64,000 nucleotides of DNA from Patescibacteria group bacterium (GTDB lineage Bacteria > Patescibacteriota > Minisyncoccia > Phycocordibacterales > UBA9973). Location of the stretch: contig JBBTYN010000002.1 in the NCBI GenBank assembly GCA_038061755.1, forward strand, positions 15,312-79,311. Reading direction: 5' to 3'. The notes beneath the pieces were generated by a model. It saw nothing but the letters and a program-made list of their open reading frames with translations. It ran no database searches and was not told the origin of the DNA. The position numbers and the translations under genes were made by a program. Positions 852 through 45,404 of the stretch are shown piece after piece. The first letter of the stretch is position 1. The number at the start of each line of letters is the position of its first letter.

Positions 852-1220
852 TTGCCTTTAATAAAAATGAACCAGAATACTAAAAAAATAATTAAAATAG
901 GAGGCTTCTCTGTTTTTTTTATTTTTATTATTATTTATGCAATTTTTGGGTCTAAAGATTTAATCTTTGGGGTAAAAATTAAAAATGTAAATCTAGTGGA
1001 TGGTGCTACGGTAACAGACAATATAATAAAACTGACTGGTAATGCAAAAAATGCAATAAATTTAACATTAGACGGACGGAAAATTTCAGTAGATGAGCAA
1101 GGCAACTTTAGTGAAATAATTGCGCTTCTTTCAGGATATAATATAATCAATATCAAAGCAGAAGATAAATTTGGCTATGTTGATGAAAAAAATTATAAAA
1201 TAATGTATCTACAAAAATAA
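852..1220 (+). CDS. hypothetical small membrane-anchored protein
   Basis: 122-aa ORF with N-terminal hydrophobic segment (FSVFFIFIIIYAIF). No recognisable motif. Confidence 0.35.
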   Translation: MPLIKMNQNTKKIIKIGGFSVFFIFIIIYAIFGSKDLIFGVKIKNVNLVDGATVTDNIIKLTGNAKNAINLTLDGRKISVDEQGNFSEIIALLSGYNIINIKAEDKFGYVDEKNYKIMYLQK

Positions 1221-1233
1221 TTTTTCTTTTTGA

Positions 1234-1272
1234 AAGGTCCTCGGTTCTCTGGGTCCCTATCCCAGCCAGACC
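1234..1272 (+). promoter_or_regulatory. Conserved 36-38 nt element (copy 1) 40 nt upstream of recA; contains hairpin CTGGG-TCCCTAT-CCCAG
   Basis: AGGTCCTCGGTTCTCTGGGTCCCTATCCCAGCCAGAC matches reverse complement of 34129..34166 exactly. Same orientation relative to downstream gene in both copies. Confidence 0.5.
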
Positions 1273-1311
1273 ATTTCAAAAAGTAAAATTATTTAAGTAG
1301 ATTAAAAAAGT

Positions 1312-2961: not shown

Positions 2962-3162
2962 TTATTTAACTACAAATGGGAGCAAGCCCATAAATCTAGC
3001 GTGTTTTATGGCAGAAGTTAAGGCGCGTTGATTTTTAGAAATCACACCGGTACGCTTGTGGCTCATTATTTTACCATTAGGATTTAAAAATTTCTTTAGA
3101 ATTTCAATATCCTTGTAATCTATGTATTTTATATTGTTTGCTGAAAAATAATCTTGTTTCAT
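2962..3162 (-). CDS. rpsR: 30S ribosomal protein S18
   Basis: 66 aa; YIDYKDIEILKKFLNPNGKI...RALTSAIKHARFMGLLPF typical S18. Confidence 0.85.
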   Translation of the reverse strand: MKQDYFSANNIKYIDYKDIEILKKFLNPNGKIMSHKRTGVISKNQRALTSAIKHARFMGLLPFVVK

Positions 3163-3173
3163 ATTGTTTTGTT

Positions 3174-3216
3174 CCCAAAGCCTTGCTTAGGGGAATCCCC
3201 TAAGCAAGGCTTTGGG
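3174..3216 (-). promoter_or_regulatory. Perfect 20-bp stem / 3-nt loop hairpin between ssb and rpsR (no U-tract)
   Basis: CCCAAAGCCTTGCTTAGGGG-AAT-CCCCTAAGCAAGGCTTTGGG; lies 10 nt after ssb stop and 11 nt before rpsR ATG on minus strand. Confidence 0.6.
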
Positions 3217-3226
3217 GTCTAATAAT

Positions 3227-3682
3227 TTAAAACGGAATATCTTCTGGGTTAATATCTTCTTCAGGATATTCTATGGAATCACTTTCGGCTCCTTCACTAG
3301 CTGGAGCTTTAGAGCCGGCGCTAGTCGTTCCGGCTGTACTCCCACTCTGACCTCCTTTAGGACCAAACTGCGTACGATCAGCAACTATTTCCGTACGATA
3401 TTTTTTCTCCCCGCTTGTTTTATCATCCCAACTTCTCGTTTGCATTCTACCTTCAACCAATATAGAACTACCTTTTTTCATATATTGCGCAACTGTTTCT
3501 GCTTGGCGTCCAAAAACTACTATATTATGATAATCAGCGGATTCTTGACGAACGCCATTTTTATCTTTCCAAACACGATTGGTGGCAATAGAAAATGTGC
3601 AAACTTTTATACCTGAAGGGAGAGAGCGAAGTTCTGGGTCGCGTGTAAGATTTCCTATTAAAATTGCTTTATTTAAATACAT
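3227..3682 (-). CDS. ssb: Single-stranded DNA-binding protein
   Basis: OB-fold N-terminus (ILIGNLTRDPELR), Gly/Ser-rich linker, acidic C-terminal tail ending DIPF. Confidence 0.88.
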   Translation of the reverse strand: MYLNKAILIGNLTRDPELRSLPSGIKVCTFSIATNRVWKDKNGVRQESADYHNIVVFGRQAETVAQYMKKGSSILVEGRMQTRSWDDKTSGEKKYRTEIVADRTQFGPKGGQSGSTAGTTSAGSKAPASEGAESDSIEYPEEDINPEDIPF

Positions 3683-10048: not shown

Positions 10049-10121
10049 GCCCCTATAACTCAGATGGGAGAGAACTCCCGACAAGGGAGAGACAGTGGTT
10101 CAAATCCACTTAGGGGGACCA
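10049..10121 (+). tRNA. tRNA-like gene with encoded CCA; atypical (5-nt anticodon loop, G1-G72 mismatch); isotype not assignable
   Basis: GCCCCTA acceptor; D-arm TAACTCAGATGGGAGAGA; T-arm AGTGG-TTCAAAT-CCACT; ends ACCA. Anticodon arm reads CTCCC-GACAA-GGGAG (2 nt short). Confidence 0.45.
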
Positions 10122-14190: not shown

Positions 14191-17100
14191 TTATCTTTTC
14201 TCAATTTTTACCTTAAAAACTAACTCATCTATTTTTATCTCTTGCCATGAGTTTATCGAAGGGTCTTGTCCATCATTTTCTTTAAATTCTATTTTGGAAA
14301 CTAGCACTGTCTTTTTCATGTCATTTTCAAATTTTTGAATTAATTTTTTACCTGCATCATTGGTTTCGAAAACAATTGAGATAACATGACTTGGAGTAAG
14401 ACCAATCTTTTTTCTCATATCCTGCAAAGCACGCACAAGCTCGCGATAATCTCCTTCTTGTTTTAAATCTTTTGTAATATCTGTATCGAGACTTACTTTA
14501 TTAATGCCCATTTTTATTTTTAAAATATAAACAATATTTTTGATATTTAATTCATTTTTTATTATCTCAATATATTGGTCAGACAATTTTTCAGCAATAA
14601 TTTCTAGCTTATTTAATGGTTGACGAACTTTAATACCAGCTTTCTGTCGAGCTTCCAAACCAAGGGTTACAACACTTCTAACTGTTTCCATCTTCTCTAA
14701 AACTTTCGGTTCAAAAAACGAAAAAATTTTAAATTTTTTCGTTGGCCAACTCGCCAAATGCACACTCTCTCTGTCATCTTCATTCTTTAATCGTAGCCAA
14801 ATATTTTCTGAAGTAAATGGTGCAAAAGGGGCTAAAAGTTTTGTAAGAGTTTTTAGCACAAAATATAAAGTTTCTTTTGCTTCTTTTTCTCCATTCTTAA
14901 TTCTGTCGCGAGAACGACGCAAATACCACGTAGAAAGATCTCCAATAAAATCTTTTATTGCTCTGACTGGCTCAAGCAACTTATAATCATCCATTTTTTT
15001 TGTGGATTCACTAATTAATTCGTCTAGTCGCGCCAAAATCCATTTATCTAAAATATTTTTAGAATTTGGCTGATTATTTGTCTCTAAATTTTTATCTCTG
15101 TAAAGCTCGTAAAAAATAAGTACATTATAAAGCAAACCAAAAACTTGTTGATGAAGTAAGGCAACAGTTTTTTCATCAAAATTTTTAGATTCTCCTGGCT
15201 GATTGACCGAATACATCCAAAGACGAAGAGTATCAACACCATATTTATCCATTGCTTCCCATGGATCAACAATATTGCCGAGAGATTTAGACATTTTCTT
15301 GCCTACAGCATCCATCAAGTGCCCGAGACAAATTACATTTTTGTATGCCTTATTTCTCCCCATAAGTATTCCAACGGCATGCAAGGTATAAAACCACCCG
15401 CGAGTCTGATCTATCGCTTCTGAAATAAAATCTGCAGGATAATTAATTTTTTTAACTGAAAATGGATAATGATCTTGCGCAAATGGCATACACCCAGAAT
15501 CAAACCAAACGTCCATCACCTCTTTGGTGCGTGTTAATTTTCCGTCGCAACTACAAACAAGATTAATTTCATCAATATAAGGTTTATGTAGATCCATCTG
15601 ACCACCACTATTTCTAGGCAACTGTAAAAAACCACATTGAAAAACTTCTGCATTCTGAATAACTGGATATTTAGTATTTAAATTATTTAATTCTTGCTTT
15701 ATACTTAAAGCTTCATAAGAAGACAACAAAAGACGAATTGGATATTCATGAGATATAATCAAAATATTTTTTCCAGAATATTTTTGCTCTAAATCTTGTA
15801 GAACATAAATCATCCTTTTTCGAACATCTTCATCTGTTTCTTTAGATATTACTACTTCAGACTCTCGTAATCCCTTGTTTATAATAACTTGATCTTTAGT
15901 AAATCCAAAAGTATTAGCTATAATTTCTGCTGTTTGTTTTGTTCTGGTAAAATTTGAAGATATAATAACATCTGGCTTGAATTTTAAGCTTTTTGACATT
16001 AACCTGACTTGTTCTCTACCTTCTTCTGTTAAAGCATCATTATCCTCACCAGGATTAAAACTCTCCACATTTTTTATATTAGCAAGAGAACCTCCATGTC
16101 GCATCACAAAATATTTATTTCCTGACTTTTTTGTTTTATTTTTTAGGTCTTCAATACTTCCAATAACATCAATTTTTTTACAAGACTCACAGATCCAAAC
16201 TGGAAGCGGGGTACCCCAATATCGCTCACGAGAAATTGCCCAATCTTTTATCTCCCTTAACCATTCACCAAAACGTCCGTCACGAATATGCGCCGGTTCC
16301 CATTTTATTCCTTTATTCTCTTCTATCATCTTCGCTTTTATTTTTGAATCGGAAACTTTTATATACCAAGAATCTCGAGCATAATAGATAAGCGCCGTAT
16401 GGCAACGCCAACAATGAGGATATGAGTGTTCATATTTTTCTTTTTTAAATAAAAGTCCCCTATGCGCTAAATCTTTTATCACGTCTACAGCCACATCTTC
16501 ATCTCGTACAAATCTGCCTTCAAACATCCCTGTACCTAATAAAAATTTTCCATCAAGCCCGACAATGTGATGCTTTGGCAAACCAATCTTTGTCCCAAGT
16601 TCAAAATCATCCTGTCCATACATTACTGCTGTATGCACAACTCCCGTGCCGTCTTCAGTCGTCACAAAATCCGCTCCGTAAACCTTAAAAGCTTTTTTTA
16701 ATTTATATTTCTCGCTTTCAGAAATTGTATTTTGAAGATAAGGATAAAGTGGTTCGTATTCTAAACCGATTAAATCTTTACCTTTAATTTCTTTAACTAT
16801 TTTATATTCTCCGTCTATTGCAGAAAGTCTTTCTTTAGCTAAAATTAAAAATTCTTTTTCTATTTTTATTTTTATATAAATAATATCTTTTCCTACAGCC
16901 AAAGCAACATTTCCAGGCAAAGTCCACGGAGTTGTCGTCCAAGCAAGAATATAAGTACTGGTGGAAATGTTACTTTTGCAGGGTGTCTCGCAGGCTGACG
17001 AGCCGAGAGGCAGCGCTGTGTCAGCAGACACAGACAGCGACCCTGCAGAAGTAACATTTCCGCCAGTTACTCGAAACTTCACATACACTGACAAATCTTT

Positions 17101-17718
17101 CACATCTTCATATCCTTGCGCAAGTTCGTGCGAAGATAAAACCGTGCCACAGCGTGGACACCAAGGCACTACTTTATAATCTTTATAAAGTAAATTTTGT
17201 TCATTTATTTTTTTTACAACATTCCAAACAGATTCAATGTAATCATTATGATAAGTGACATATGCATTTTCTTGATCCACCCAATATCCAATCCGATGGG
17301 TAAACTTATTCCAAATATCTAAATATTCCCAGACACTTTCTTTACATTCTTGATTAAATTTCGCTACACCATATTCTTCAATCGCTTTTTTAGAATTAAG
17401 CCCAAGCTTTTTTTCTACCTGCAATTCTACCGGTAATCCATGCGTATCCCATCCACCTTTTCGGCGAACATGAAAACCCTGCATAGTTTTATATCGAGGA
17501 ATTGCATCTTTAAATGCTCGAGCTTCCAAATGATGAATTCCCGGCTTGCCGTTCGCTGTCGGTGGACCTTCATAAAAAACAAACTCCCCTTTAGGTGAAT
17601 CTTTTTCTAGAGATTTTAAAAAAGTTTTATTTTCTTTCCAAAATTCTAAAATCCGCTCTTCGCGAAGAGCTGCATCACTTTTTTTGTTAGAATTTTCTTT
17701 CTGAACTTCCTTGGCCAT
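14191..17718 (-). CDS. ileS: Isoleucyl-tRNA synthetase carrying an inserted histidine-phosphatase-like domain
   Basis: HHLEAR (HIGH), WTTTPWTLPGN, KMSKSLGN. About 165-aa insert with RHG...SHE motifs between the zinc-knuckle region and DLHKPYID. Confidence 0.9.
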   Translation of the reverse strand: MAKEVQKENSNKKSDAALREERILEFWKENKTFLKSLEKDSPKGEFVFYEGPPTANGKPGIHHLEARAFKDAIPRYKTMQGFHVRRKGGWDTHGLPVELQVEKKLGLNSKKAIEEYGVAKFNQECKESVWEYLDIWNKFTHRIGYWVDQENAYVTYHNDYIESVWNVVKKINEQNLLYKDYKVVPWCPRCGTVLSSHELAQGYEDVKDLSVYVKFRVTGGNVTSAGSLSVSADTALPLGSSACETPCKSNISTSTYILAWTTTPWTLPGNVALAVGKDIIYIKIKIEKEFLILAKERLSAIDGEYKIVKEIKGKDLIGLEYEPLYPYLQNTISESEKYKLKKAFKVYGADFVTTEDGTGVVHTAVMYGQDDFELGTKIGLPKHHIVGLDGKFLLGTGMFEGRFVRDEDVAVDVIKDLAHRGLLFKKEKYEHSYPHCWRCHTALIYYARDSWYIKVSDSKIKAKMIEENKGIKWEPAHIRDGRFGEWLREIKDWAISRERYWGTPLPVWICESCKKIDVIGSIEDLKNKTKKSGNKYFVMRHGGSLANIKNVESFNPGEDNDALTEEGREQVRLMSKSLKFKPDVIISSNFTRTKQTAEIIANTFGFTKDQVIINKGLRESEVVISKETDEDVRKRMIYVLQDLEQKYSGKNILIISHEYPIRLLLSSYEALSIKQELNNLNTKYPVIQNAEVFQCGFLQLPRNSGGQMDLHKPYIDEINLVCSCDGKLTRTKEVMDVWFDSGCMPFAQDHYPFSVKKINYPADFISEAIDQTRGWFYTLHAVGILMGRNKAYKNVICLGHLMDAVGKKMSKSLGNIVDPWEAMDKYGVDTLRLWMYSVNQPGESKNFDEKTVALLHQQVFGLLYNVLIFYELYRDKNLETNNQPNSKNILDKWILARLDELISESTKKMDDYKLLEPVRAIKDFIGDLSTWYLRRSRDRIKNGEKEAKETLYFVLKTLTKLLAPFAPFTSENIWLRLKNEDDRESVHLASWPTKKFKIFSFFEPKVLEKMETVRSVVTLGLEARQKAGIKVRQPLNKLEIIAEKLSDQYIEIIKNELNIKNIVYILKIKMGINKVSLDTDITKDLKQEGDYRELVRALQDMRKKIGLTPSHVISIVFETNDAGKKLIQKFENDMKKTVLVSKIEFKENDGQDPSINSWQEIKIDELVFKVKIEKR

Positions 17719-32342: not shown

Positions 32343-34073
32343 TTATAATATATTTTCTATTCTTAATCTTAGCTCTTCTCTACCTTTAAATCTAGATAAA
32401 TCAAAAGTAGCCAAAAGATTAACCATTTTCTTTTCTGTGATAGATACATCAAAAGAATCAAAATCAGAAAAAAATGAAATAGCTGTAGCCTTACCAGATA
32501 AATCAGAAAAAATAATTTCTAAATGTTCCTCAGATCCATTTTTGCCAAATTTTTTTATTTTTTCTATCTTAACGTCAGGAAAGAAGAAAATAGGCTTCAA
32601 ATTACCTAAACCAAAAGGTGCGAGCTTTTCTATCTCCTTCCAATTTTTCATATTTACAATACTCAAATTAGATTTGATATCATAATTTGCAACATCTTCT
32701 TTTTTATCTCTTTTTACTTTGTGAAAAGAAAGAGACAGCGCTTCTTCCAAAAAATGAATTTTATCATCATGCACAGTAAATCCTCCTGCAAATTCATGCC
32801 CGCCAAAATCTACAAATGATTCACTATTTTCACTCATCAGCTCCACGACAGAAATTGATCCATCGCTACGACAAGAACCCTTGATACAATCATTTTCATC
32901 TTTTGCCCACACAAAAACAGATTTTTTATATTTATCTGATATTTTTCCTGCCACCAATCCCAAAACTCCGACCTTCCATTCTGGATTACCTATCACAATC
33001 ACATCTTTCATATCTCCCCCTTCTAATTTCTTATCTATGTGTTTATTCACGTCACGCATAATACCTTTCACAATATTTTTTCTTTCATCATTTATTTTTG
33101 ATAAATGATTTACCAATATGCCTGCTTCTACCTCATCTCTCGTAGAAAGAAGTTCATAAGCCCGCATGGGGTCATCCATTCGCGAAGCAGCATTTAATCT
33201 AGGCGTTACCATAAAACAAATATCATCAACTGATAAATATTTTTGCTCAATCTTTATTTTTGCCAAAAGTTTTTGCAAGCCTGGACGAGGAGACTTCTTT
33301 AACACCTTCATCCCAAAATACGCAATAGATCTATTCTCACCAGAAAGCGGAACCATATCAGAAAGTGTTGCTAAGCCAGCCATATCCAGCATCCATTTTT
33401 CACTACCGTTCTTAATACCAAAATATTCGCCATATTTACAGATAAATCCTTGCATAAATTTAAAAACAACACCTGCCCCACAAAGCATTTTTTCTGGGTA
33501 TGATTCCACGGAATCATACGGCGTACCGTCAATTGAAACGCCGCCTGTTTTTGGATTCAAAATTGCATAAGCGCGAGGTAAATCAAAAGAGACAAGCCCA
33601 CCTTCGCTAAAGCTCTGACGAGGCACGTGATGATCAATTATTATCACATCTATACCATCCACTTCTGCTTGCGCCACTTCTGCAAATGCTGTGATTCCTA
33701 AATCAACAGTAATTAAAAGTTTAACATTAGACTTTGCAAATTGTTTAATCGCATCCATATTTAAACCATAACCCTCAGAATTCCTTTGAGGAATATATAC
33801 TTCAAAATTTTTATAATTTATCAATTTAAATAAATCAGTCAAAATAACTGCTCCCGGTATGCCATCACAATCATAGTCAGCATAAATGATTATTTTTTCT
33901 TTATTCTCTATCGCTTCATATAGCCTAACGCAAGCTTTATCCATATCCCGCATCAAAAAAGGATCATGAAAATCTCGCTCATAATCTGGATTGAGAAAAA
34001 TTTCCGCTTGTTCTATATCAACAATACCTCTTTTTTCTAAAAGTGTTCGCAGTAATTCTCCATATCTTTGCAT
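32343..34073 (-). CDS. recJ: Single-stranded-DNA-specific exonuclease RecJ
   Basis: DHH motifs (IIYADYDCDGIPGA, DHH region), DHHA1 domain. Start set at MQRYGELL because the upstream part of the ORF-track ORF is the non-coding conserved element. Confidence 0.85.
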   Translation of the reverse strand: MQRYGELLRTLLEKRGIVDIEQAEIFLNPDYERDFHDPFLMRDMDKACVRLYEAIENKEKIIIYADYDCDGIPGAVILTDLFKLINYKNFEVYIPQRNSEGYGLNMDAIKQFAKSNVKLLITVDLGITAFAEVAQAEVDGIDVIIIDHHVPRQSFSEGGLVSFDLPRAYAILNPKTGGVSIDGTPYDSVESYPEKMLCGAGVVFKFMQGFICKYGEYFGIKNGSEKWMLDMAGLATLSDMVPLSGENRSIAYFGMKVLKKSPRPGLQKLLAKIKIEQKYLSVDDICFMVTPRLNAASRMDDPMRAYELLSTRDEVEAGILVNHLSKINDERKNIVKGIMRDVNKHIDKKLEGGDMKDVIVIGNPEWKVGVLGLVAGKISDKYKKSVFVWAKDENDCIKGSCRSDGSISVVELMSENSESFVDFGGHEFAGGFTVHDDKIHFLEEALSLSFHKVKRDKKEDVANYDIKSNLSIVNMKNWKEIEKLAPFGLGNLKPIFFFPDVKIEKIKKFGKNGSEEHLEIIFSDLSGKATAISFFSDFDSFDVSITEKKMVNLLATFDLSRFKGREELRLRIENIL

Positions 34074-34128
34074 AACTGAAATTTTAACATATAATATAGA
34101 AAGTTTCGCAAAATAAAGTTTTGGAATA

Positions 34129-34166
34129 GTCTGGCTGGGATAGGGACCCAGAGAACCGAGGACCTG
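34129..34166 (-). promoter_or_regulatory. Conserved 36-38 nt element (copy 2) 55 nt upstream of recJ, same orientation as copy 1
   Basis: Reverse complement equals 1234..1271; intergenic between recJ (-) and HIT gene (+). Confidence 0.5.
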
Positions 34167-34182
34167 AGAAAACTTTGATTTT

Positions 34183-34587
34183 GTGAAACTTTCTATGGAA
34201 AACTGTATTTTTTGCAAAATAATAAAAGAAGAAATTCCTTGCATAAAAATTTATGAAAACAAAAACTTTTTATCCTTTTTAGATATACAGCCAGTGTCCG
34301 ATGGACATCTTTTATTGATTCCCAAAAAACACATTGTTTGGATGCAAAACGCTAACGATGAAACAATCTCAGAAATTTTTAAATTATCTAAAAAATTAAT
34401 GCTTGCTATTAAAAAAGGAATCGCGTGTGACTATGTCCAATTATCCATCGTCGGCAAAGATGTTCCACATTTTCATATTCACCTAATTCCAAGATATTTT
34501 AAAGATAGTCTGCCGATGTTCCCAACAAAAAAATACAAAGATAAAGAATCAAATGAAGCTGCCAAAAAAATTATCGGAGCATTTTGA
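34183..34587 (+). CDS. HIT-family (histidine triad) nucleotide hydrolase
   Basis: CIFCKI N-terminus, HFHIHLIP histidine triad. Confidence 0.82.
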   Translation: MKLSMENCIFCKIIKEEIPCIKIYENKNFLSFLDIQPVSDGHLLLIPKKHIVWMQNANDETISEIFKLSKKLMLAIKKGIACDYVQLSIVGKDVPHFHIHLIPRYFKDSLPMFPTKKYKDKESNEAAKKIIGAF

Positions 34588-37738: not shown

Positions 37739-38299
37739 TTAATAACTGCCTCTTAAAACCACTGTGTCATAAAAATCTTGAATATTGCCTGATGGATCAT
37801 TAATGGATCTTAGAGTTAAAACTATTTTGACAGCTTTTCCTTTATTTGTATTTATTTGAGTAAAAGTAAGAGCCATAATATTAATGTTCGGGGTATTCAA
37901 GTTTCCTGTAAGCGTTCCATTTTCAAGAAGTTCAATATTGGAATCGGAAAGCAGGAACTCTACTGTTTTCGCCACTCCAGCATCATCTGTAGTTGCAAGA
38001 TTTAAATCGCTAGTACTAATTAAATTTATGCCATTTGCTTGCCTGATTTCTCGCGACATTCTTTCTATTATATTTCCACTTTGTACTAACTCAGCCTGTA
38101 TAGTAGTTTCTTTAAAAGATCTAGCCATTGTAATCATGGCATTAATCACCACTGAAGAAAGAACAGAAAAAAAAGCAATATAAAAAAGAAGTTCTAAAAC
38201 AGCATAGCCATGTTCATAAGACAGTGCTTTAGGCTCTGTCCAGACAGAACCTAAAGCACTGTCTAGTATTATTTTTTTATTTTTTTTTATCTTTATCAT
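37739..38299 (-). CDS. Type IV pilin-like protein with long leader
   Basis: G-YAVLELLFYIAFFSVL hydrophobic N-terminal pilin-like segment after 30-aa leader. Confidence 0.45.
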   Translation of the reverse strand: MIKIKKNKKIILDSALGSVWTEPKALSYEHGYAVLELLFYIAFFSVLSSVVINAMITMARSFKETTIQAELVQSGNIIERMSREIRQANGINLISTSDLNLATTDDAGVAKTVEFLLSDSNIELLENGTLTGNLNTPNINIMALTFTQINTNKGKAVKIVLTLRSINDPSGNIQDFYDTVVLRGSY

Positions 38300-42249: not shown

Positions 42250-42264
42250 TACAAATATAGTATA

Positions 42265-42298
42265 GCAAAAAAATCTCCCAAATGGGAGATTTTTTTGC
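42265..42298. terminator. Perfect palindromic bidirectional terminator-like hairpin
   Basis: GCAAAAAAATCTCCCA-AAT-GGGAGATTTTTTTGC, flanked by A/T tracts on both sides. Confidence 0.6.
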
Positions 42299-42315
42299 TA
42301 ATAATTAAAATTAAA

Positions 42316-45156: not shown

Positions 45157-45336
45157 CCCGCACCTCCAAAAAATTTTAGATTATTTTATTGTAAAAGGAC
45201 AAAAAACATCCTTTATTGATTGTTTAATGTATTATACTACTTTTCTATTTTAAAGTCAACTACTTAGAAATGTAGGGTAATTTCTGCGTAATTTGTAAAA
45301 AATTATTTATTTTCCAATTTTTCAATGCGAGATTTT

Positions 45337-45391
45337 ACACACTAGCAAGGACAGTCCTAGCTAGCCTTTAGCTAGGATTGTTCTTGCTAGT
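45337..45391. repeat. REP-like element doublet C (two inverted copies)
   Basis: ACACACTAGCAAGGACAGTCCTAGCTAG and TAGCTAGGATTGTTCTTGCTAGT (inverted relative to the first). Confidence 0.75.
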
Positions 45392-45404
45392 ACTTGCCAA
45401 CATC

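Follow-up and report, generated by a model that had tools for sequence, protein, structure and literature searches.

Within the 64,000 nucleotides analysed here (contig JBBTYN010000002.1 of assembly GCA_038061755.1, positions 15,312 to 79,311 of the forward strand; this whole stretch is called the window in the following), an identical DNA element is located 40 nt upstream of recA (1312-2382, + strand; PF00154, 454 bits) and 55 nt upstream of recJ (32343-34073, - strand; DHH, DHHA1 and RecJ_OB domains). The window has a G+C content of about 34% and belongs to a Patescibacteria group bacterium. Its RecA is 100% identical to RecA of a groundwater Patescibacteria metagenome-assembled genome, and its closest named relatives are Candidatus Nomurabacteria/Paceibacterota. 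A first-pass annotation had described the two copies and their same orientation to both genes, which was confirmed, and had interpreted the element as a shared operator or 5' untranslated region (5'-UTR) structure of a damage-response regulon. The question raised by this locus is whether the two copies are regulatory parts of recA and recJ at all. The comparison with related genomes partly supported the earlier interpretation, but largely replaced it. We consider it fairly probable that the copies belong to a family of palindromic repeats of about 90-100 bp that is specific to Patescibacteria of the Nomurabacteria/Paceibacterota type and consists of non-autonomous, mobile or formerly mobile DNA, analogous to the Rickettsia palindromic elements (RPEs).

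Architecture of the hairpin and its pairing

The shared sequence is a 37-mer (AGGTCCTCGGTTCTCTGGGTCCCTATCCCAGCCAGAC) with two exact sites in the window, 1235-1271 (+) and 34129-34165 (-), and half-patterns of the 37-mer return the same two sites. A third site with up to three mismatches was not found in the window, where 0.00 were expected according to 100 dinucleotide shuffles. Each 37-mer forms the apex of a hairpin of about 90 nt. Copy 1 comprises positions 1210-1299 (+), with the arms of the outer stem P1 at 1210-1232 and 1277-1299 (fold -29.9 kcal/mol, z = -5.3), and copy 2 comprises positions 34101-34190 (-), with P1 arms at 34168-34190 and 34101-34123 (fold -20.3 kcal/mol, z = -2.2). 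The P1 arms of the two copies are unrelated in sequence, yet they pair in both.

For the comparison with other genomes, 104 distinct copies were aligned, a consensus structure was calculated with RNAalifold and a covariance model was built from the alignment. The conserved core of copy 1 (1235-1276, +), which includes the exact 37-mer, corresponds to invariant columns of this alignment and reaches 94.5 bits with the model; its layout is A-GGTC (P2) CTC GG TTCT-CTGGG (P3) TCCCTAT loop CCCAG-CC-A-GACC-ATTT. The core of copy 2 (34124-34165, -; 84.4 bits) is identical over 37 nt and possesses GACT in place of GACC in P2, which results in one G·T pair. Searching the whole window with the model and with filters off yielded only these two copies and no degenerate ones; likewise, the window's own genes for IleRS, ArgRS, ComEC, Pif1 helicase and others contain no copy according to the model.

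The alignment shows an invariant centre and variable flanks (consensus cTTTTTnTcA-GGTCCTCGGTTCTC-YGGGKCCC(loop)CCCRG-CCAGACC-ATTCnAAAAAg). P1 comprises about 19-25 bp, and its sequence varies with the pairing kept. The centre consists of a near-invariant frame, A-GGTCCTCGG ... CCAGACC-ATTC, and of an apical hairpin that is replaceable: the window copies carry the form TTCTC-YGGGKCCC...CCCRG, and other apices occur within the same frame in other genomes. In about nine additional model matches and in metagenomic recA loci, the apex was represented by AAGGGGGTCAG, by two other hairpins or by one deletion, and in each case the outer stem was retained together with the frame (GGTCCTCGG...CCAGACC). 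The core is free of stop codons in five of the six reading frames.

The consensus structure contains 30 pairs, and all 19 pairs of P1 exhibit double (compensatory) changes. P2 (GGUC/GACC) and the adjacent GG/CC never vary. The stem of 5 bp with a loop of 7 nt (CTGGG-TCCCTAT-CCCAG) that the annotation had recognised proved to be real, and one of its pairs covaries across relatives (CG 60, UA 37, GC 4). If the structure is fixed, 87.5% of the cells pair in comparison to 66.4% in shuffled alignments, none of which reached the observed value (0/500), and pairing amounts to 33-58% when the partners are slid against each other. Among the outer-stem mismatches, G·T occurs 69 times versus 110 times A·C on the element strand, and the ratio on the mRNA strand is 68 to 96. 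A helix selected in the transcript would show the opposite pattern, namely an excess of wobble pairs; as G·U is not in excess on either strand, the pairing appears to be a property of the DNA palindrome and not of an RNA helix. The covariation analysis across related genomes that the annotation had suggested thus shows covarying stems, but the covariation is not of the RNA type, and a shared 5'-UTR structure was not supported.

A further hint was obtained from a population haplotype of the same species with identical RecA (L002; handles of this kind designate the loci and genomes compared). In the 3' arm of copy 1 (window 1283-1292; L002 ~2590-2610) AA is changed to TT, by which two stem mismatches are removed and P1 becomes a perfect palindrome. 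We infer that this is the kind of multi-base change that is made by intramolecular template switching.

Several other palindromes were observed in the window. Five strong intergenic hairpins (3162-3228, 814-871, 42250-42313, 38211-38271 and 45336-45396) lack the core and score weakly with the model on both strands (17-22 bits); these are probably ordinary terminator-like palindromes.

Distribution in Patescibacteria genomes

A degenerate core pattern was scanned over one genome per species, and at least 117 stretches were returned. At least 106 true copies were found in about 60 assemblies of Patescibacteria (Nomurabacteria/Paceibacterota), usually 2-5 per assembly, whereby the numbers per genome are lower bounds; the copies occupy more than 40 distinct insertion sites. 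About 15 matches from genomes rich in GC (Streptomyces, Micromonospora, Myxococcaceae and others) possess neither the GGT...AGACC frame nor the stems and were rejected as chance matches. The covariance model yielded 112 matches in 729 kb of Patescibacteria loci, about nine of which had been missed by the strict pattern. The density is roughly one copy per 30-90 kb, with two copies in the 64 kb of the window, at least five in a contig of 356 kb and at least four in a contig of 813 kb. The core pattern was absent from the viral contigs scanned, which gives no indication that phages carry the element. A locus labelled Burkholderiales (L053), one labelled as an archaeon (L071) and several loci labelled 'Saccharibacteria' contain the element between AT-rich, Nomurabacteria-like flanks; these labels are probably due to mis-binning or mislabelling.

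About 60 of the at least 106 copies are located within long open reading frames (ORFs) that read through the element. This dispersed occurrence argues against a shared operator or 5'-UTR structure. The frames used are sense 0, 1 and 2 (20, 2 and 22 copies) and antisense 0 and 1 (13 and 4 copies), and the sixth frame, in which a stop codon occurs, is never used. Depending on the frame, the encoded peptides are GPRFSG.., QVLGSPGP.., GLAGVGDPENRGP.., RSSVL.. or WSGRERDPENRGP, and the element appears as a translated, Gly/Pro/Ser-rich insertion of about 33 residues in loops of enzymes that act on nucleic acids. In the proteins compared (LigA, KsgA and UvrB), orthologues without the element are shorter by about 24-35 residues at the same point, which indicates that the whole hairpin is extra, translated sequence. 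The possibility that the outer stem had arisen by copying the flank of the target in inverted form was rejected, because relatives with an empty recA site lack the hairpin in its entirety and because the same applies to the whole stretch of residues in LigA, KsgA and UvrB.

The host ORFs represent at least 20 families identified by Pfam. Among the copies listed, the hosts with a function in DNA repair and recombination are PolA (~11), UvrD (~9, at two sites), LigA (5-6, inside the zinc-finger loop), UvrB (4, at two sites), UvrA (3), UvrC (1), DprA (1) and an SMC-like ATPase (1). About one third of the intragenic copies listed are found in enzymes of tRNA, rRNA and translation, namely CCA-adding enzyme (5), PheRS-beta (3-4), KsgA (3-4), TsaD (3), GatA (2), IleRS (2), LeuRS (1), Tgt (1) and MnmA (1). 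Additional hosts are a class-V aminotransferase (6) and a DUF4147/MOFRL protein (1). Ribosomal proteins, RNA polymerase, hypothetical proteins and membrane proteins contained no copy among the matches listed. Copies located in short spacers between genes were found repeatedly upstream of recA, in 8 genomes, and upstream of recJ; in 3 genomes a copy lies between ftsK and the small ORF in front of recA. Elsewhere, the intergenic copies have unknown genes as neighbours or genes for AtpB, DsbD, an ABC ATPase, a release factor and an M24 peptidase. The multi-genome search thus revealed a bias towards repair genes, as the annotation had anticipated, with genome-maintenance genes providing 10 of 22 intragenic sites (P ~3e-6 against a rough baseline of 8% derived from the window). 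A damage regulon did not emerge from it, since the class of tRNA and translation hosts does not fit such a regulon.

Some of the host proteins, or their counterparts in the window, contain other insertions. The UvrD of L035 (175-3525) has a length of 1116 amino acids and shows a weak match to Intein_splicing at residues 553-645, and it may hold an intein besides the hairpin insertion. IleRS, encoded in the window at 14191-17718 (-) and also present in L102, contains an internal histidine-phosphatase domain (PF00300), and LeuRS in L045 contains an internal NUDIX domain, which is likewise an insertion of a whole domain in an aminoacyl-tRNA synthetase.

With regard to transcription, 66 of the copies listed are in sense and 30 in antisense orientation (69% sense). 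The observed ratio departs from 50:50 but is indistinguishable from 60:40, the value expected when one antisense frame is closed by a stop codon (P = 0.095). Moreover, both orientations were found at single orthologous sites: 5:3 at recA, 3:1 at recJ, and also at the PolA, LigA, UvrA, UvrB, KsgA, CCA-enzyme and PheRS sites. The recA-site copy is reversed in three of eight genomes (L008/L084, L057 and L108), and the recJ-site copy is reversed in one of four carriers (L055), in which the arms are the same as in the window. Reversal between the same flanking stems argues against the regulon element that was suggested for recA and recJ. Among the relatives compared at the recA site, L011 has the orientation of the window, L008 (Nomurabacteria GW2011_GWB1_40_7) has the reversed one together with a compensatory change from CTGGG/CCCAG to CCGGG/CCCGG, and L013 does not contain the element.

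The immediate surroundings of the two window copies were analysed as well. The gene order ftsK - small ORF - recA is conserved in relatives. In the window, the small ORF (852-1220, +; Glucodextran_B-like, PF09136, E = 1e-8) receives its final codons (LQK) and its stop codon from the 5' arm of P1 of copy 1. Of the 121 nt that separate recJ from a divergently transcribed gene of the HIT family (34195-34587, +; PF01230, E = 1e-19), copy 2 takes up the greater part. The ATG of the HIT gene is located a few nt past the end of P1 and 1 nt from a palindromic stretch that continues P1; copy 2 is therefore equally 'upstream' of the HIT gene, in antisense orientation. Homologues of recJ begin at MQRY..., and the recJ ORF start at 34244 (-) is a spurious 5' extension of 57 codons that runs through copy 2 into the HIT gene, which is possible because the element is open in that frame. 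Gene callers have produced the same false extension in L116. A candidate extended -10 motif of recJ (TGTTAAAAT), read from the sequences, lies downstream of copy 2, so that the element is probably outside the recJ leader. Scans for promoters and terminators around both copies revealed no sigma-70-like site or intrinsic terminator that overlaps the element on the relevant strand, and the element is thus not a terminator.

Turnover of the copies and competing explanations

In 80 metagenomic recA loci (RecA 70-95% identical), the covariance model detected the element beside recA about nine times; about 70 of these close relatives do not have it upstream of recA, and a spacer of 5-15 nt or unrelated hairpins were found there instead. 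Upstream of recJ, six relatives showed the element four times (once flipped), a degenerate or different hairpin in L029 and an empty 36-nt spacer in L040. Absence from these positions in close relatives had been named by the annotation itself as refuting its interpretation, and it counts against a regulon element. In UvrA, UvrB, KsgA and the CCA-adding enzyme, empty sites were found although the genomes concerned contain copies at other positions. The arms of a copy in PolA (L043) and of a copy in UvrB (L065), which belong to different genomes, are 94% identical, and the arms of two copies within the L113 genome are 85% identical. Such near-identical arms at non-orthologous sites indicate that whole elements have reached new sites. 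Furthermore, identical apices were found in 16 of 74 within-genome pairs, in comparison to 4.5% of the between-genome pairs. In L156, all three copies carry apex B, and the arms of the copy at the recA site are homologous to those of the window copy, which carries apex A. Together, the shared apices within genomes and the situation in L156 indicate that the centre is homogenised or replaced within genomes, which would account for the exact 37-nt identity of the two window copies. As the two copies lie in opposite orientation, a site-specific inversion of the 33-kb segment between them was also considered; the synteny of relatives gave no sign of it.

Other hairpins share some of these sites. 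A second, unrelated family of in-frame hairpins (core ..CTCCGTCGYTCGCAYTCYRTCTTGGAAGGGCAAG.., peptide ..LRRSHSVLEGQ..), which has variable flanking stems of its own, occurs in the same protein loops: in UvrB at site 1 in L048 (~1130-1240), at UvrB site 2 in L104 and L026, and in the CCA-adding enzyme in L063. In L065, the element is nested in a member of this second family or replaces half of it. Hairpins of a third type (..CCCTGTTAAAT...ATTTAACAGGG.., flanked by GAGCnnAGCGAATATATTTTA) are located about 60-190 nt upstream of recA in L133, L138, L148 and L152, and the spacer upstream of recA is a hot spot for different palindromic insertions.

It is likely, in our judgement, that these observations reflect a repeat family that behaves as non-autonomous mobile DNA. 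According to this proposal, the whole hairpin would move to new sites, and the central part would invert between the two arms, which would scramble the orientation. The arms would remain complementary at the DNA level, for which intramolecular template switching is a plausible cause, and copies within a genome would become partly homogenised in their cores. Two of the insertion sites would then be the one upstream of recA and the one between the HIT gene and recJ, and any effect on the expression of recA or recJ would be incidental.

Several results weigh against this proposal. Terminal inverted repeats distinct from the stem were not recognised at filled and empty sites, and a convincing target-site duplication was not found when filled and empty recJ, recA and UvrB sites, the flanks of which have diverged, were compared; an AT dinucleotide on both sides of the recJ site is a possible duplication. 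A transposase was not found, although no search was aimed at transposases. Degenerate copies are rare (about 9 of the 112 model matches, and none in the window). In nine recA-site copies the core is 92% identical, a value that is inflated by ascertainment as copies were found by pattern, whereas the four-fold degenerate sites of recA are identical to only 39% and therewith saturated; nevertheless, every apex variant that the model detected still has the frame, and the core differences at the recA site are all confined to P3 and its loop. Finally, the excess of genome-maintenance genes among the intragenic sites persists if the baseline is raised to 15% (P = 7e-4). Random insertion does not predict such a bias, and tolerance, hot spots or recombination that spreads copies in conserved genes would have to account for it. 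Part of the enrichment may result from tolerance in long enzymes with low expression. In several genomes (L026, L043, L065, L087 and L061), polA, uvrB, uvrA and uvrC are adjacent and uvrD is situated next to ksgA, and this clustering may inflate the apparent enrichment of the gene class.

Conservation of the core, the low number of decayed copies and the gene-class bias keep a functional explanation at the DNA level alive, even if we regard it as unlikely. The frame GGTCCTCGG...CCAGACC could be a DNA-level signal that is recognised by a protein in either orientation, perhaps as an extruded hairpin or cruciform, and that marks genome-maintenance genes. It might act as a roadblock or operator of a LexA-independent damage or competence regulon, which would imply control from inside coding sequences, or as an uptake or recombination signal that preferentially preserves these genes in naturally competent reduced genomes. 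The core conserved beyond synonymous saturation would fit such a signal, as would the intragenic copies in dprA and in uvrA, uvrB, uvrC, uvrD, polA and ligA, which represent the whole excision-repair set, the intergenic copies next to recA, recJ and ftsK, and the corresponding enrichment. Independence of orientation is consistent with recognition of double-stranded or cruciform DNA, and the window contains comEC and a gene for a pilB-like ATPase. The DNA uptake sequences and uptake signal sequences (DUS/USS) are reportedly biased towards genome-maintenance genes as well (Davidsen et al. 2004). However, the occurrence is patchy, with the recA site empty in most relatives and the UvrA, UvrB, KsgA and CCA-enzyme sites empty in carriers; the share of tRNA and translation enzymes is considerable, and the intergenic neighbours are unrelated. 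At roughly one copy per 30-90 kb, the element is much too sparse to serve as an uptake tag, a candidate binding protein was not identified, and the second hairpin family in the same loops suggests permissive hot spots rather than gene-specific regulation.

Much less probable is the coordination of a damage-response regulon by a classical operator at recA and recJ or by a cis-acting RNA in their leaders that works like a riboswitch or binds a protein. The position and common orientation of both window copies, the strong fold, the covarying stems and the preponderance of sense copies are in line with it. Against it stand the flips at recA and recJ, the translation of most copies within ORFs, the lack of a G·U excess and of any Rfam match, the absence from most orthologous leaders, the recJ -10 motif downstream of the element and the close contact of copy 2 with the divergent HIT gene. 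Even less credit is given to an intervening sequence at the RNA level, in which the frame would form a bulge-helix-bulge-like structure (a 4-bp GGUC/GACC helix with CUC and AUUC on opposite strands) and the apex would be excised and the ends religated. The geometry of the frame and the freely replaceable apex would agree with this, and the excised segment in the window copies, as read from the sequence, would comprise 33 nt. Apices of 33, 34, 35 and more nt, however, all stand in frame in unspliced ORFs, and as these lengths are not all multiples of three, splicing would break many frames. In addition, 30 of 96 copies are antisense to the mRNA, and the internal loops are 3x1 and 3x4 instead of clean bulges of 3 nt. 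The mobile palindromic repeat therefore remains the explanation that we favour.

Relation to known repeats and implications

Searches of the whole window against Rfam 15 at gathering scores revealed only a tRNA elsewhere, and the region of copy 1 gave, at E <= 10, only matches to miRNA hairpins far below the cut-offs. The tRNA call (10049-10118, +; 39.3 bits at a gathering score of 29) has an anticodon arm with a 2-nt deletion and an apparently 5-nt loop and is located in antisense between the genes for a peptidase M16 and glycyl-tRNA synthetase; ARAGORN detected no tRNA in the window. Signal recognition particle RNA, a tRNA-like T-arm, a k-turn and twister, pistol and hammerhead ribozymes were considered and rejected for the element, since the signature nucleotides are missing and Rfam gave no match. 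Literature searches by topic yielded no account of the element or of repeats in Patescibacteria that resemble RPEs or MITEs (transposable elements of miniature size with inverted repeats), and searches by sequence string returned unrelated primers only. As far as these tools tell, the family, which is of the RPE or MITE kind, is hitherto undescribed in Rfam and the searchable literature.

RPEs offer the closest comparison. In a reduced genome, these palindromic repeats are found as in-frame insertions in many genes (Ogata et al. 2000, as summarised in PMC10969869 and PMC6649704). RPEs and the Patescibacteria element have in common that palindromic repeats of about 100-150 bp occur in small, AT-rich, reduced genomes, with intergenic as well as in-frame genic copies, evidently functional host proteins and no associated transposase; the host phylum differs from that of Rickettsia. 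Each RPE encodes a conserved peptide (PMC10969869), whereas the Patescibacteria element uses five frames and both orientations. The identity of RPE repeats is lost over time (PMC6649704). In the element studied here, by contrast, the conserved part is the central core of about 40 nt, which keeps an identity of about 92% where synonymous sites are saturated, the arms differ between copies through compensatory changes, the apex is modular, and the hosts are biased towards DNA-repair and tRNA enzymes.

Other systems share single features. MITEs such as Correia, ERIC, BOX and RUP are likewise small non-autonomous repeats, and they sometimes create in-frame fusions (PMC10969869). They possess defined terminal inverted repeats and target-site duplications, whereas the P1 arms of the Patescibacteria element are inverted but vary between copies. 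The coding palindromes of nematomorph mitochondria (PMC6649704) and the mobile GC clusters of fungal mitochondria resemble the element in being hairpins in translated, AT-rich DNA whose palindrome is maintained at the DNA level. The nematomorph repeats are perfect, have no shared conserved core, and their arms encode conserved residues of the host protein (PMC6649704). The hairpin described here is, in contrast, wholly extra sequence with a shared core. Operators of the LexA/SOS type are similarly associated with recA, uvrA, uvrB and uvrD, but they are short, located in promoters and consistently present, whereas the element is mostly intragenic and patchy and lies in a long hairpin.

Repetitive extragenic palindromic sequences and the hairpins formed from them (REP/REPIN) are short, hairpin-forming DNA repeats that are maintained for long times at the DNA level and in either orientation. 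They are extragenic, combine conserved arms with a variable loop and depend on a single-copy gene for a REP-associated tyrosine transposase (RAYT). The Patescibacteria element shows the reverse pattern of conservation: its arms are the variable part, and more than half of its copies are intragenic. DUS/USS are independent of orientation and occur in coding and non-coding DNA. As 9-12-mers found about once per kb they are 100-fold more frequent than the element, a hairpin of about 90 nt.

For recA and recJ in this organism, annotation with a shared operator or leader RNA is unwarranted. More generally, caution is required in the annotation of these genomes, as the hairpins extend ORFs, as in the case of the false recJ start at 34244, and can pass for regulatory motifs. 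If the DNA-level signal were real after all, the concentration at uvrABCD, polA, ligA, recA, recJ and dprA would reflect function, and the element would provide a first handle on the control or protection of genome-maintenance genes in bacteria in which no LexA box was seen. If, on the other hand, the favoured explanation is true, Patescibacteria would be the second lineage with reduced genomes, after Rickettsia, in which palindromic DNA has colonised coding sequences, and at least two hairpin families would have the same protein loops in common. The family would go beyond RPEs by its invariant frame with a swappable apex, by the maintenance of its stem at the DNA level, and by conservation past saturation together with the bias towards repair and tRNA enzymes. 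It would also account for some of the unexplained protein insertions in these bacteria, and it would represent a test case for the persistence of selfish or semi-domesticated hairpins in streamlined genomes.

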